DNA of 64,000 nucleotides from a virus, in the IMG/VR virus record IMGVR_UViG_3300034374_009254, positions 37,259 to 101,258 of that record; one strand, written 5' to 3'. A program made the position numbers and the translations under genes. Shown here in pieces: positions 37,183 through 63,410 of the stretch. A model generated the notes under the pieces. That model had not been told where the DNA came from and did no database searches. It was given only the letters and a program-made list of their open reading frames with translations. Every line of letters starts with the position of its first letter. The first letter of the stretch is position 1.

Positions 37183-37612
37183 TAGCCTTTTACATTATGG
37201 GTGTAATTTTTTCCACCGCCTGCTTGTGTTTGTCGCTCTGCTTGTTTTCTTTGTTTTTCTGCTTTATCTAACTTTTCTGAAACTATAATAGTTTCATACA
37301 TTTTCATAAAATATAAAACCGTTGTTCGATTTTCTACTTGGTACATATCGAATAAAAATGCTATTCCTTCCCAGACTTTTCCCAAATAAGTGCCGCTCAT
37401 GCCTTCGTAGCGATCGGGTAGTAGCCCTAATATAAAAAATGCCACTTGAACTTCCTCTGGAAAATCAGAGAGTTCGAGCGGCATTTTAGCAGGATCAGGT
37501 TCTTGACCTAGTTGTTCACAAATTGTAAGATATTTTTCAACATCTATCTTAGAATCTGTTTGTTTTGCATGACGTTCTAGTAGCTTTTGTATTTCTGCTA
37601 CTTGTTCCCAGT
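37182..37612 (-). CDS. Tail assembly chaperone frameshift extension (gpT-like), expressed as a -1 fusion to 37598-38020
   Basis: The -1 frame after the slippery site is open (YWEQVAEIQKLL...PDPAKMPLELSDF) and continuous with ORF 37182-37484. Confidence 0.85.
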
Positions 37613-53680: not shown

Positions 53681-53874
53681 TAGCCTTTGCCGCTTGGATC
53701 GGGGCCGCTTGCATGATGGCGGCCCCTTTCATCATCGACACGAGCGCGGGAAAATATCTTGCGATTGTCGGTTTGGCATTATTAACATTGCAAGCGATTG
53801 CCAATCGGTGCTATAATCTGGTCTTGCTTAACATCGTTGGTATCGGAGGATATTTTTATGCGCTTTATCTATGA
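53677..53874 (+). CDS. Small multi-TM membrane protein
   Basis: Hydrophobic 65 aa, ATGA overlap. Confidence 0.7.
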   Translation: MIAFAAWIGAACMMAAPFIIDTSAGKYLAIVGLALLTLQAIANRCYNLVLLNIVGIGGYFYALYL

Positions 53875-54331
53875 TTTAGATCACACTGTGATCGACTCGT
53901 CACATCGTCAGCTTACACTTGCTGACGGCTCACTCGATCTGGATCACTGGATCGAAAACAACACGCCCGAAAAAATCGCGCGTGACCGACTGCTACCGCT
54001 TGCCCGTCACTGGCGAGCGCAACGCGAACGCGGCTGTGAGATCGTGGTCTGCACTGCTCGCGTTATGGGTGCGGCAGATTACGAATATCTGCGCGCAAAT
54101 AACCTCGAATGGGATGCTTGCCTATCGCGCCCACTCGGTAACACTAACCCAGACGGCGAGCTAAAATTTGCACTATTGCAAAAATACGCTCGCGCAAAGA
54201 CTCACTCATGGGCTAGGTTTTGCAAATTTAGCCTAATGATAGATGACAATAAAAACGTCATCTCTTACTTGACTGCTCGCGGCTTGCGGGTTTATAATGC
54301 ACTTGAAATTAACGCGAGGTTAGCGGCATGA
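53858..54331 (+). CDS. HAD-family phosphatase
   Basis: Motif I DLDHTV, motif II TAR, K, motif IV IDD; GGAGG RBS before ATG 53858. Confidence 0.85.
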   Translation: MRFIYDLDHTVIDSSHRQLTLADGSLDLDHWIENNTPEKIARDRLLPLARHWRAQRERGCEIVVCTARVMGAADYEYLRANNLEWDACLSRPLGNTNPDGELKFALLQKYARAKTHSWARFCKFSLMIDDNKNVISYLTARGLRVYNALEINARLAA

Positions 54332-57073: not shown

Positions 57074-57403
57074 ATGACTGATATGACTGCAAAGGCTTCG
57101 GCCAACTACACTCAAGAAATGGTTGACACCATCTCTTCTGACTACTCTGCTAACCCTACTCGTGCTACTGTTGATGCGCTTGCTGACAAGTTCGACAAGA
57201 CTCCTCGTAGTATCATCGCTAAGCTCTCTGCTTTGGGCATCTATGTCAAGGCTGAGCGTGTAACCAAGCGCGGTGAGCCGATTGTTCGCAAGGACGAGTT
57301 GGTTGCTCAGGTTCAGGCAAGCCTTGGTTTCGAAGTACCCTCTTTGGTCAAAATGACTAAGGTTGATCTTCAGAACCTCATCAGCTTCTTCGAAGCAGCT
57401 TAA
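57074..57403 (+). CDS. T5 A2/D3-like DNA-binding protein, probably highly expressed
   Basis: NYTQEM...LA..F.KT.RSIIAKLS..GIYVK...RKDELV; own promoter (56999-57027) and terminator; strongly biased codons. Confidence 0.8.
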   Translation: MTDMTAKASANYTQEMVDTISSDYSANPTRATVDALADKFDKTPRSIIAKLSALGIYVKAERVTKRGEPIVRKDELVAQVQASLGFEVPSLVKMTKVDLQNLISFFEAA

Positions 57404-58575: not shown

Positions 58576-58756
58576 AGATAGTGCGGAAAATGTAGCATTT
58601 CGTATACGCACTTTTTGTATGTACGAAGCTGACGTAGAAAAGTTCGAACCCAAACTTCATATGAACAATGATGGGCTCGTACTGGAGTACAATGAGAAGA
58701 GTACTGGGTATAAAAGATTTGAAAAAATGTGTGGGGTAACGAAAAATAATTCTTGA
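58565..58756 (+). CDS. Hypothetical protein
   Basis: Coupled ORF. Confidence 0.55.
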   Translation: MELKDSAENVAFRIRTFCMYEADVEKFEPKLHMNNDGLVLEYNEKSTGYKRFEKMCGVTKNNS

Positions 58757-58788
58757 CATTTTGTGGTCACTTCTTGTATAATATCTTC

Positions 58789-59347
58789 TTAAATGGTGAG
58801 GAATCGCCAAAAGTTTGAGGGAAGTCAGGGACGCCATTAGTGTTGCTACCCACTATGCGATAAGACAGTAAAGATCCCGGTAAAAGTTAACTCGGCCTAT
58901 CCGGAGCCCTCATCATTATCCATCTACAGTTGTTGACCAGTCCACCGACGGGTGAGAGGGCATCTATCTGTAGATCAGCCAGCCTGAAGCTAGAATTCAG
59001 GTAGTGCAAGGGACGCACTCGTTAGTTCCCCGCCCTACGCCGAGGTTGTCTGTCGGTGTACGTTCGGAAGGCGTATAACTTCTGTCCAGTTACCAGTTGG
59101 TGCGATTTGTATTCTGGGGTATCAAAAACAAAAACGCGGTGAAGTTGTAATCTGCAGTACAGCTTCAGGTATGTGAGGAGGGGGTGCATATCACTTTAAC
59201 TATAGGAGGAAGTCCTGTAAGTAGCAAATCGCGATAGAGCGTCGAAAACTCTCATGGCTACTTAAAGGCACTATATAGCCTAGTGGCAGTTCGCGGCTCT
59301 AAACCTAACTGTAAAATCCCTGCATAGAAATATGTGGGGATTTTTTT
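58789..59347 (+). ncRNA. Candidate ~550-nt structured non-coding RNA
   Basis: Promoter TTGACA-18-TATAAT (58753-58782), no long ORF, at least 10 hairpins, strong terminator at 59313-59347. Confidence 0.75.
59313..59347 (+). terminator. Intrinsic terminator
   Basis: AAAATCCCTGCATA-GAAA-TATGTGGGGATTTT-TTT. Confidence 0.88.
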
Positions 59348-59418
59348 ATGCCTTCAGAAAATTTTTCTTGACATTTTTTGGCAGGTGCGATATAATATGT
59401 GGTTCTGAGGAGAATTTT

Positions 59419-59763
59419 ATGAGTGATAATATTATTGAATTTCCAGTACACCTTACAGCGGGGTCTCAACGAACCAGAAATGAACTGGCAGACATGGGAC
59501 ACAGTCTCGAGCGAGTGTATGAAAGCCTGGAGGAAGCAATGACTGCAATGTCAGAGATGGAAACAGCAATTAAAGAGCTGGAAAATCGTTACAATGAGAA
59601 ATTGCTGGAACTTGCGGAACAGGTGGGAATTGAAAACCTTACAATTGATGATGTAAAGTACGCAACCAATATCGGGGTCGGTACGGGGTCGCGGGAGTTT
59701 ACATTTGAGTTGGAAGACGGAAAGATGTTTAAATTCGTACTAGAGGAAGATCCGAATGAGTAA
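59419..59763 (+). CDS. Coiled-coil acidic protein
   Basis: Promoter 59368-59396, GAGGAG RBS, MSDNIIEFP start. Confidence 0.75.
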   Translation: MSDNIIEFPVHLTAGSQRTRNELADMGHSLERVYESLEEAMTAMSEMETAIKELENRYNEKLLELAEQVGIENLTIDDVKYATNIGVGTGSREFTFELEDGKMFKFVLEEDPNE

Positions 59764-60070
59764 TTATTCAGAAAACGAAGTAAAAGAGATGCTAGAAGTT
59801 TACACTGCAAATCCGTGCAGAGAAAGTGTAAACGAACTGGCAGAAAAAATGGGTCGAAGTGTAAAGTCAATTATAGGAAAGCTCTCGCGTGAGGGAGTTT
59901 ATAGGCGAGAGAAGTACTTGACTAAAACTGGAGAAAACCCTGTCACAAAAGTAGAAATACTAGAAGAAATTGCAGAAAAACTTGATCTAGACGTGACCAA
60001 GTTATCAGGATTGGAGAAGGCTCCTAAGCCAGTTTTAAAATTATTGGCAGAACGTGTTGGATTAAGTTAA
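59756..60070 (+). CDS. T5 A2/D3-like DNA-binding protein (third paralog)
   Basis: NYSE...ELAEKMGRSVKSIIGKLSREGVY...TKTGENPVTKVE...LEKAPK. Confidence 0.8.
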   Translation: MSNYSENEVKEMLEVYTANPCRESVNELAEKMGRSVKSIIGKLSREGVYRREKYLTKTGENPVTKVEILEEIAEKLDLDVTKLSGLEKAPKPVLKLLAERVGLS

Positions 60071-61830: not shown

Positions 61831-61854
61831 AAAGGGGCATTGCGCCCCTTTTTT
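61831..61854. terminator. Bidirectional terminator
   Basis: AAAGGGGC-ATTGC-GCCCCTTTT between convergent genes. Confidence 0.85.
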
Positions 61855-62233
61855 AATAGAGTATCTTTTTTAGATCTGGAGCAAAGAAATTTGGTCCTTT
61901 TACAACTTTACCATCAAAGCGTTTGATAGGCTTACCATCTTCTCCTAGCTTGCTCATATTGCTTTCGTGTACTTCTACGAAGCAAGCATCAAGATCAATG
62001 CCAAAAGCATGACCGGCTCCGTAAACCACGTAGAGCAAATCTGTAAGAGCATCAGCAATTTCAATAATGTCTTTCGCACCCATAGCTTCATGTAGCTCCT
62101 CCAATTCTTCTCTGATAAGTTCGTGCCGGAGCGCTCTTGTTTCCGGGTCACGAAGAGTGGGGTTACTGTGTACATCTTGTTCAAACGCGTGCATGAACTC
62201 GGCGACGAGTTCGAAGTTTGTTTTGTTCTGCAA
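61853..62233 (-). CDS. MazG-like / PRA-PH family NTP pyrophosphohydrolase
   Basis: LIREELEEL, EIADALTDLLYVVYG, EVHESNMSK, DGKVVKGPNF; start probably TTG at 62233. Confidence 0.88.
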   Translation of the reverse strand: MQNKTNFELVAEFMHAFEQDVHSNPTLRDPETRALRHELIREELEELHEAMGAKDIIEIADALTDLLYVVYGAGHAFGIDLDACFVEVHESNMSKLGEDGKPIKRFDGKVVKGPNFFAPDLKKILY

Positions 62234-62399
62234 TTCTTCTTTTCTCCCTTGCTTTAGCTGATAATTTTGCCTTCGATCTTGCAATGGAAGGCTTTTCAAA
62301 ATACTGTTTTTCTTTGTAGTCAAAAAGTTTGTCTGCGTATTTACGTTTAAAAACTTTTAAAGCTGCATTCACATTGTTGTTCCTTACTTTTACGGACAT
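62181..62399 (-). CDS. rpsU: Ribosomal protein bS21
   Basis: VKVRNNNVNAALKVFKRK...YFEKPS...K..AK.R. Confidence 0.88.
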   Translation of the reverse strand: MSVKVRNNNVNAALKVFKRKYADKLFDYKEKQYFEKPSIARSKAKLSAKAREKRRIAEQNKLRTRRRVHARV

Positions 62400-62741: not shown

Positions 62742-62830
62742 ATTATAGTGGAAAACTGTAAAAAAGTCAAGTACTTTTTTTGACCACCCCTAAAATACTT
62801 CTTGACTTTAACTCCTTTCTCTGGTATAAT
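62742..62830. promoter_or_regulatory. Divergent sigma70 promoter pair
   Basis: Minus strand TTGACT-17-TATAAT (62742-62770); plus strand TTGACT-17-TATAAT with TG extension (62802-62830). Confidence 0.85.
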
Positions 62831-62886: not shown

Positions 62887-63033
62887 TTGATAACTACTAC
62901 TGAATTTGCAATTTTTATTTTTTGCCTTCTTGGGTGTGGAATACACTCTTGGAAGTTAGGAAAATCACAAGGAGTAGAGGCTACCGTCCAGTACATGATT
63001 GATACGGGAGTACTCGAAGTAGAAGATGAATAA
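62887..63033 (+). CDS. 48-aa single-TM protein (not in ORF track)
   Basis: AAGGAG RBS, TTG start, MITTTEFAIFIFCLLGCGIHSWKLGKSQGVEATV... Confidence 0.65.
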   Translation: MITTTEFAIFIFCLLGCGIHSWKLGKSQGVEATVQYMIDTGVLEVEDE

Positions 63034-63091
63034 TTCGTTGAAGTAATAAACTAACGGTTGGACTCGGGTGCAATTCCCGACAGCTCCACCA
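63032..63091 (+). ncRNA. ssrA: tmRNA acceptor piece (permuted gene, 3' half first)
   Basis: GAC + T-arm TCGGG-TGCAATT-CCCGA + CAGCTCC-A-CCA. Confidence 0.9.
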
Positions 63092-63105
63092 TAAGGAGTT
63101 TTATA

Positions 63106-63276
63106 ATGCGTATACCAATGAAAGGTGGTGATGAGTTTGATGGACTGTCTCGACGTTCTAAAAGATTTTTTCTTTGGAGAGCCGGAGAAAGAAAGAGCCT
63201 CAAGAGAAAGTACAATAAACGACGCAGAAAGACTTTTTATGATGGGGCTGATACAGACTCGACAGGCGTACAGTAG
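63106..63276 (+). CDS. 56-aa basic protein encoded in the tmRNA intervening segment
   Basis: AAGGAG at 63093-98, ATG at 63106, MRIPMKGGDEFDGLSRRSKRFFLWRAGERKSLKRKYNKRRRKTFYDGADTDSTGVQ. Confidence 0.75.
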   Translation: MRIPMKGGDEFDGLSRRSKRFFLWRAGERKSLKRKYNKRRRKTFYDGADTDSTGVQ

Positions 63277-63410
63277 ACTTATGGAGAATTCGTGCGGAAG
63301 CTACGTTAACGCAACAAACTTAATAAATGCCAACGACGACATTTATGCACTTGCTGCCTAATTAAAGGTAAGCGGGGTGGGAGGAGCCTGGCAACAGAAA
63401 TCCTCAAGCT
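63244..63410 (+). ncRNA. ssrA: tmRNA coding piece; tag ANDDIYALAA
   Basis: GGGGCTGATACAGACTCGAC 5' end, pk1-like element, ATAAAT-GCC resume context, tag 63329-63361. Confidence 0.92.

Follow-up and report, generated by a model that had tools for sequence, protein, structure and literature searches.

The stretch analyzed here is a window of 64,000 nucleotides (nt) of viral DNA, positions 37,259 to 101,258 of the IMG/VR record IMGVR_UViG_3300034374_009254, which makes up the final 64 kb of a 101,258-bp record rated complete, and the element in question is a gene for a structured noncoding RNA on its + strand at 58789..59347 (~560 nt in the window, 483-685 nt among homologs). A first-pass annotation, made from the letters alone, had proposed an uncharacterized large phage noncoding RNA with its own promoter and terminator and no open reading frame (ORF), and this proposal was borne out: the RNA is conserved, its helices covary, it has no Rfam match and it holds no conserved ORF. 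Judged by sequence comparison, this is a real, strongly conserved and elaborately folded noncoding RNA gene of a new family, to be placed within the large ornate phage RNAs, and the behavior of two of its loops suggests, in addition, a concrete and testable hypothesis of self-association.

The gene is bounded by clear transcription signals. A sigma-70 consensus promoter with an upstream A-tract lies at 58753..58782 (+; TTGACA, an 18-nt spacer and TATAAT, 12 of 12 hexamer positions matching), with the transcription start predicted near 58789-58791; the -35 and -10 hexamers are invariant, and the A-tract is kept, in 30/30 full-length homologs. At the other end, 59313..59347 (+) holds an intrinsic terminator with a 14-bp stem, a GAAA loop and a U7 tail, the hairpin of which is kept among homologs and shows compensatory changes in one lineage (helices 17-18). 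Promoter and terminator are retained in every homologous copy. A second consensus promoter, serving the next gene, stands 3' of this terminator (59368..59396, +), and therefore the RNA gene is a separate transcription unit and not a leader. A test for a cis-regulatory leader or riboswitch found no continuity with the downstream coding region, and the downstream gene is exchanged among homologs. On the + strand of the window copy, 58789-59347, there is no ORF of at least 30 amino acids (aa), and none is conserved in place or frame among 30 homologs.

Homologs were reached through a search with the neighboring MazG gene, which led to one homologous locus, from there to an invariant stretch, and from that to the 18-mer AAAGATCCCGGTAAAAGT. 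This 18-mer was found in 11 viral contigs and 38 true metagenome loci (83 stretches matched and 80 loci read, the remaining 42 being chance matches), and three more viral loci came from a second pattern, two of them identical in sequence and one the divergent L223, which lacks the 18-mer. In total, 43 loci with 37 distinct 5' domains match a covariance model of the 5' domain (domain 1, below) at 83-148 bits, all of them marine viral or metagenome contigs of one T5-like phage clade with the RNA in an identical gene slot; 30 distinct full-length copies of 483-685 nt formed the alignment set. RNA-bearing contigs of 72-95 kb have a terminase 83% identical to that of the window, and genes follow a fixed order around the RNA, with a 63-aa gene before it and a variable 114-aa gene and then a DNA-binding protein after it. 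The 114-aa gene shares 26-98% identity among loci, and in some it escapes detection. Relative to the window, the 5' domain has a median identity of 87% vs. 80% for the flanking gene, and outside the 5' domain the RNA retains its pairing despite a sequence identity of only 60%.

Beyond this clade, no relative was recovered. The region had no blastn match among 50,697 phage records; viral-contig searches with the neighboring 260-aa and 114-aa proteins gave nothing useful; a first DNA pattern, GAGGGAAGTCAGGGACGCC, had no match; and the domain 1 model found nothing in 30 records of terminase-related phages, mostly fragments, nor in two cultured T5-like phages, My1 and Vibrio phage D252. Among prokaryotes, 185,579 species, each represented by one genome, yielded only chance matches to the 18-mer. 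In a 48-kb relative (G004, L067; record L209:1257-1498, - strand), the flanking 63-aa gene is present and the RNA absent, its slot being taken by a different promoter-to-terminator unit of ~200 nt that lacks both an Rfam match and a folding signal (z = +0.35). It is possible that this slot acts as a hot spot at which small independent transcription units settle.

Rfam 15 gave no match in the RNA region at the gathering score when the window was searched, none when 58600-59500 was searched with E up to 10, and none in twelve homologous loci with E up to 1, apart from weak matches to the terminator-like ends of unrelated small RNAs. The models for ROOL, GOLLD, OLE, raiA, RNase P, 6S and transfer-messenger RNA (tmRNA) all fail on the RNA region. 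This covariance-model check, which had been recommended at first pass, thus assigns no family, consistent with an uncharacterized RNA. As far as searched, the RNA is a new family confined to one uncultured marine T5-like phage clade, although parts of it may figure among the 8,495 anonymous candidates of the IMG/VR csRNA catalogue (PMC10690425).

The fold was derived from RNAalifold blocks and single-sequence folds mapped onto the alignment. The resulting model of 86 pairs (18 helix segments by the count of the tool) is paired in 91.2% of 2,479 cells over the 30 full-length relatives, compared with 32-48% in a control with partners slid by 1-3 columns. Compensatory double changes occur at 42 of the 86 pairs, vs. 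12-15 in the slid versions and 28 in shuffled ones, and none of 500 shuffles reached the observed value. The earlier remark that G-U pairs favor the + strand also stood up, with 227 G-U vs. 63 A-C among the helix cells, an excess that shows the + strand RNA, rather than duplex DNA, to be under selection. Column-pair statistics, applied to look for long-range pseudoknots, returned noise only.

Most of the twelve stems listed in the first-pass annotation recur in this model. Nine are present, namely GGTGA/TCGCC, TGAGGG/CCCTCA, ATCTACAG/CTGTAGAT, CCTGAA/TTCAGG, AGTGC/GCACT, TACGCCGA/TCGGTGTA (with a core of 5 bp), TGAAGTTGTA/TACAGCTTCA, GGTATGT/GCATATC and AAGTAGC/GCTACTT, seven of which were counted on alignments, with GGTGA/TCGCC and CCTGAA/TTCAGG judged by eye. 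TATAGG/CCTGTA holds as the core AGGA/UCCU and not beyond it, while CACTA/TAGTG and CAGTT/AACTG fall in an optional, almost invariant 3' module. Compensatory changes among these stems are found in P1, P6, P8, P10 and P11; P13 pairs mainly in the lineage of the window (58.7% overall), and the AGTGC/GCACT stem varies on one side only.

The RNA begins with an optional 5' hairpin, P0 (58795..58808, +; GGUGA/UCGCC), absent in about a third of homologs. Its loop is GGAA in the window and GAAA or AAGA in relatives, and therefore it is of the GNRA type. Next comes domain 1, a three-way-junction core of 97 nt (58816..58912, +) made of P1 (58816-58821/58907-58912), an arm of P2 (58824-58826/58864-58866, with a GYC/GRC switch), P3 (58832-58834/58857-58859) and P4 (58839-58842/58851-58854, with loop NGCYACC), and P5 (58877-58880/58901-58904). 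In L223, P4 is a wholly different stem, and P5, otherwise invariant, shows a change from G-C to A-U. In the model-based alignment of the 37 distinct sequences, domain 1 is 96.8% paired with 8 of 22 pairs compensatory; it hardly varies in its junction and loop nucleotides, 23 consecutive nt being identical in the first 12 homologs aligned, and candidate partners for the P4 loop were inconsistent.

The P6 domain (58922..58975, +) consists of an outer stem (58922-58929/58968-58975), a conserved internal loop (GUUGACC ... GGCAUC) and an apical hairpin; its outer stem has double changes in all five pairs counted, with variants UCUAC, UCCAC, CCCGC and CAAAC (helices 6-8). P7 (58982..59002, +; CCUGAA/UUCAGG) is specific to the lineage of the window, where it varies as GCUGAAA/UUUCAGC or GUCUGAA/UUCAGAC (judged by eye), and most relatives have a different hairpin at its position, GUGCU...AGCAC. 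It is followed by an H-type pseudoknot, PK1 (59003..59030, +), with S1 at 59003-59007/59015-59019 (AGUGC/GCACU) and S2 at 59010-59013/59027-59030. A pairing of the loop AAGGGAC with a downstream GTTCC had been suggested, and it is supported as GGGA/UCCC, which becomes GUGG/CCAC in another lineage; PK1 is 100% paired, with two double changes.

P8 (59039..59057, +; GCCGA/UCGGU) is 90.7% paired and has CG in 16 and UA in 12 sequences at one pair (helix 9). The second H-type pseudoknot, PK2 (59058..59084, +; S1 59058-59062/59072-59076, S2 59065-59070/59079-59084), has double changes at 3 and 5 pairs (helices 10-11) and keeps the same topology with unrelated sequence in another lineage (CCCC/GGG(C)G and GUGUAC/GUGCAC). 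P9 (59086..59117, +; CCAG/CUGG) closes a variable inner element and is 97.5% paired and nearly invariant (helix 12). After it stands a conserved A-rich single strand, CAAAAACAAAAAC (59123..59135, +), which might make A-minor contacts or bind protein.

The P10 hairpin (59141..59166, +) has double changes in 8/8 stem pairs (helix 13), and its loop (59149-59158), a candidate symmetric kissing loop, carries the palindrome CUGCAG at 59152-59157. P11 (59168..59192, +), 98.6% paired with CG in 23 vs. UA in 5 sequences (helix 14), displays the purine-rich loop AGGAGGGGG, read as GGAGG or GGAAGG in relatives, and P12 (59204..59216, +; AGGA/UCCU, helix 15) displays GGAAG. A 17-mer around P12 occurs in viral contigs in no other RNA context; outside the family its contexts are unrelated and mostly coding. 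The P13 arm (59220..59262, +; stem 59220-59225/59257-59262) contains a 5' bulge with an 8-nt palindrome, AUCGCGAU (59228-59235), a candidate kissing contact, and P13a (59236-59239/59249-59252) with a conserved loop, CGUCGAAAA; helix 16 of this arm has double changes in 3/4 pairs. The P13a loop, CGUCGAAA(A/C) within 59236-59252, is almost invariant above its covarying stem (3/4 pairs) and looks by eye like a T-loop-type motif.

The 3' third is modular. An optional 3' module, GGCACUAUAUAGCCUAGUGGCAGUUCGCGGCUCUAAACCUAACUGU (59267..59312, +), is found in about half of homologs and hardly varies among them; one lineage lacks both it and P12-P13, and in others inserts of 110-130 nt replace or extend it. 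These inserts stand directly before the terminator (~110 nt in L096, L116, L128 and L136; ~130 nt in L150 and L160) and look structured, one of them with CUGACGAG, and have no Rfam match at E up to 1.

The two palindromes, in the P10 loop and the P13 bulge, change between lineages without ceasing to be palindromes. The P10 loop is 9-10 nt long and holds a palindrome in every lineage examined; this reads CUGCAG, UCGCGG or ACGCGA (core CGCG), CCAUGG in L223, or GUUGCAAC in L136 and L152, and the apex tetranucleotide is palindromic in all four loop kinds, or five with the CGCG flank forms (UGCA, CGCG, CAUG, and UGCA within GUUGCAAC). The P13 bulge reads AUCGCGAU, AUUGCAAU or UUGCAA. At positions 2 and 5 of the P10 hexamer, 17 sequences have UA and 11 have CG, and at positions 3 and 6 of the P13 octamer, 17 have UA and 6 have CG, with no one-sided change at either site. 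When these palindrome "pairs" are counted within one strand, 86.6% are paired vs. 21-64% in slid controls, and four show double changes vs. none in the slid versions. No such palindrome-switching pattern was seen in the other loops and linkers of the same RNA. An 8-nt palindrome in the P5 loop, AGUUAACU, is not kept as a palindrome by its variants and was not counted as a contact.

With only two bases between them, such partners cannot pair inside a single chain, and therefore the simplest reading is pairing between two copies of the RNA. Kretsch et al. (2025; PMC12286853) took the switching of a loop tetranucleotide among GGCC, GAUC and AGCU as evidence from evolution for the symmetric kissing loops that cryo-electron microscopy (cryo-EM) had revealed in OLE and GOLLD, and a signature of the same type, as in OLE L9.3 and GOLLD L21a, was found in the P10 apex and the P13 bulge (CGCG or UGCA). 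Together with this precedent, the palindrome-preserving changes favor a self-associating RNA.

Comparison with the known large RNAs gives precedents for such an assembly and sets the window RNA apart from each of them. ROOL (RF03087) is likewise a phage- or prophage-associated ornate noncoding RNA of ~500-600 nt with many covarying helices and pseudoknots, a variable and poorly conserved internal or 3' region, and a function that is not known. It forms a homo-octameric RNA-only cage. ROOL is found in Lactobacillales or the rumen, often next to tRNA genes, whereas the window RNA belongs to marine T5-like phages and the window genome has no tRNA, only a tmRNA 3.6 kb downstream of the RNA; further, the window RNA has no match to the covariance model, and its secondary structure is different, with local domains arranged as a chain and a three-way junction as the 5' core. 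ROOL self-assembles through kissing loops and A-minor contacts (PMC12286853), and the window RNA likewise carries candidate symmetric kissing loops. GOLLD (RF01998), also a large phage-encoded structured RNA known in marine metagenomes, is conserved in one half and variable in the other, but in the reverse sense: GOLLD has a conserved 3' and a variable 5' part, whereas here the 5' part is conserved and the 3' third variable. The window family is also shorter (483-685 nt vs. >800 nt), lacks a model match and is not adjacent to tRNAs. The symmetric kissing loop L21a of GOLLD covaries at a central dinucleotide, GC vs. CG, and the tetranucleotide palindrome switch closest to the P10/P13 pattern is that of OLE L9.3 (PMC12286853). 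OLE (RF01071), a dimer formed via a symmetric kissing loop with the tetranucleotide palindromes GGCC, GAUC and AGCU, is the closest precedent for P10 and P13, although it comes from bacteria (Firmicutes), acts together with the OapA, OapB and OapC proteins and has no sequence or model similarity to the window RNA. The suggestion of a ROOL/GOLLD-class RNA is therefore apt as an analogy, for a large, ornate, phage-encoded RNA with palindrome-switching loops, and not as membership, on the evidence of covariance models and architecture.

The large terminase of the window phage shares ~50% identity with its counterparts in Pectobacterium phage My1 (Demerecviridae) and in 113-kb Vibrio phages, and ~600 marine viral contigs have closer terminases than the cultured phages, which makes it an uncultured marine T5-like phage. 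The RNA gene is located in the early region, which is rich in consensus promoters (38 found vs. 17 expected). Across the 101,258-bp genome (G000) these promoters are concentrated at 89-101 kb and 3-16 kb, and its two termini resemble each other, with 87% identity between the first 523 bases and the last ~505, so the early region probably continues across the contig ends. ARAGORN found no tRNA gene in the whole 101-kb genome, which is unusual for a T5-like phage. A circularly permuted (two-piece) tmRNA lies at 62982-63408 (+; RF04321, 117 bits; ARAGORN tag ANDDIYALAA), with a promoter-like site at 62802-62830; among RNA-bearing relatives, a tmRNA is present in G034 and L150 and absent from G031-G033. 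Two paralogous small DNA-binding proteins, helix-turn-helix (HTH)-like and assigned to PHROG 1725 and 323 ("D5-like regulator"), are encoded at 57074-57403 and 59756-60070 (both +), ~1.4 kb upstream and ~0.4 kb downstream of the RNA gene, and both are kept in all homologous loci. The block of small genes holding the RNA is bounded by a polynucleotide kinase-like gene (53798-54331, +) and a MazG-like pyrophosphohydrolase (61853-62323, -), which are syntenic in relatives.

Taken together, we hypothesize that this stand-alone early gene encodes a ~560-nt structured noncoding RNA that self-associates via symmetric kissing contacts and whose invariant 5' domain binds a partner, a proposal to which we would give about an even chance. 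Host RNA polymerase would transcribe the RNA early from the consensus promoter, and the transcript would fold into a series of locally closed domains: the invariant 5' three-way junction, an internal-loop stem, two H-type pseudoknots and an A-rich linker, followed by a hairpin with a self-complementary loop, a hairpin with a purine loop and an exchangeable 3' part. Acting as neither an antisense nor a cis regulator, copies of the RNA would bind one another through the P10 loop and the P13 bulge to give a dimer or a larger symmetric assembly, for which GOLLD and ROOL from phages and OLE from bacteria are precedents, while the invariant 5' domain would be the binding site for a host or phage partner.

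Several observations weigh against this proposal. The palindrome switches rest on few evolutionary events; by loop shuffling, each palindrome alone is only moderately unlikely (P = 0.03-0.35); and the lineage L097/L100, in which L097 is a natural minimal form of 483 nt, lacks the P13 arm. The palindromes could also be sites for a dimeric protein, giving a similar pattern. The single-sequence fold is mildly better than shuffles (z = -2.5), and therefore the case for the fold rests on the comparative evidence. No helix closing the whole molecule was found, all supported helices being local, and modules are exchanged between lineages, so that the RNA may be a flexible chain of modules instead of one compact particle.

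The foremost alternative is a monomeric decoy or sponge, in which the 5' domain and the purine- and A-rich strands would, early in infection, tie up some protein or machine of the host (for example the ribosome or its 30S subunit, Hfq, RNA polymerase or a defense nuclease) without any self-association. We regard it as possible, if somewhat unlikely. A decoy for defense proteins had been among the first-pass options, and the evidence neither favors nor disfavors it. The near invariance of the junction and loop nucleotides of domain 1 is what a binding site would show, and the kept GGAGG or GGAAGG of P11 and GGAAG of P12, the conserved A-rich strand with the U-tailed terminator after it, and the early-region location near polynucleotide kinase, MazG and tmRNA agree with it, as does the report that ribosomes are pulled down by GOLLD (PMC12286853). 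However, no more than about a third of P11 loops contain a Shine-Dalgarno-like GGAGGU, and the palindrome-preserving changes would be left unexplained. A decoy is also compatible with the preferred explanation and does not exclude self-association.

Alternatively, the transcript might be a precursor or chain of separable small RNA modules, possibly processed and each with its own role, which would account for module swaps, losses and insertions. The local nature of the supported helices, with no closing long-range helix, fits this idea, as do the modular 3' third with total lengths of 483-685 nt and the finding that P7 and PK1 of the window stand in place of different modules of most relatives. 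We nevertheless consider it improbable: domain 1 and the P12 module are found only inside this RNA family (in viral and metagenome contigs), the core modules always follow the same order, and there is a single promoter and a single terminator.

A ribozyme, either self-cleaving or a reduced RNase P-like catalyst serving the phage tmRNA, appears very unlikely. The large size, pseudoknots and invariant core would suit it, as would the two-piece tmRNA 3.6 kb away, and in our own reading GGGAAGUCAGGGAC and GACAGUAAAGAUCCCGG are loosely like CR-I and CR-V of RNase P. However, no RNase P or other ribozyme model matches even with E up to 10, the CR-I-like GYC pairs locally with GRC as the 3-bp P2 and not in a P4-type helix, and the tmRNA is absent from three of the four RNA-bearing relatives searched. 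The window RNA thus differs from bacterial RNase P RNA in having neither an Rfam model match nor a P4 helix of CR-I and CR-V. An RNase P-like reading of GGGAAGUCAGGGAC and ACAGUAAAGAUCCCGG was rejected on the lack of a model match and the covariation of GYC with the nearby GRC, and a resemblance of the GGGAAGUCAGGGAC/ACAGUAAAGAUCCCGG stretch to the peptidyl-transferase loop of 23S rRNA, seen by eye only and with no Rfam support, was dropped.

Equally remote are a CsrA/RsmA sponge, which had been among the first-pass options, and an element acting at the level of DNA, with the palindromes as operators for the flanking DNA-binding proteins. Like CsrB and RsmZ, the window RNA is stand-alone, ends in a terminator and has some GGA in hairpin loops, and the GGA in the P11 and P12 loops, ~30 nt apart, could hold one CsrA dimer. 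CsrB and RsmZ have about 5 GGA per 100 nt, whereas the 560 nt of the window RNA have 10 (1.8 per 100 nt), compared with 10.1 expected in shuffles. That several loops display GGA is accordingly true of P12, where it is conserved, and in part of P11, where most relatives keep it (a column count scores P11 low from alignment offsets), but not of P0, the first GGA loop, a tetraloop reading GAAA in relatives; three further conserved GGA are in the 5' domain. With GGA at chance level, mostly not conserved and kept in only two loops, and with a structure far more elaborate than an array of GGA hairpins, a CsrA sponge is not supported. Operators would agree with the two paralogous HTH-like DNA-binding proteins that flank the gene, but not with helices that tolerate G-U and not A-C (227 vs. 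63).

Returning to self-association, we put forward more tentatively, and as unlikely on balance, that marine T5-like phages, as soon as they have infected a cell, produce an RNA-only homo-oligomeric particle (either a dimer or a dihedral cage) with a fold unrelated to those of GOLLD, ROOL and OLE, held together by two independent symmetric kissing contacts and capturing a host component with its invariant 5' domain. The proposal is open to direct experiment, since a core of ~480-560 nt is within reach of in vitro transcription and cryo-EM, the 97 nt of the invariant 5' domain offer a well-defined bait with which to search for a cellular partner, and the family already has an alignment, two pseudoknots supported by covariation and candidate contacts between molecules. 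Large, ornate RNAs without a known role are rare, and OLE, ROOL and GOLLD have recently been shown to be protein-free multimers. If the proposal is true, the window RNA would represent a fourth, independently evolved class of self-assembling natural RNA, and such assemblies would recur in lytic ocean phages. A further family with an unrelated fold, in abundant lytic marine phages, would indicate that large structured RNAs regularly belong to the phage early program.

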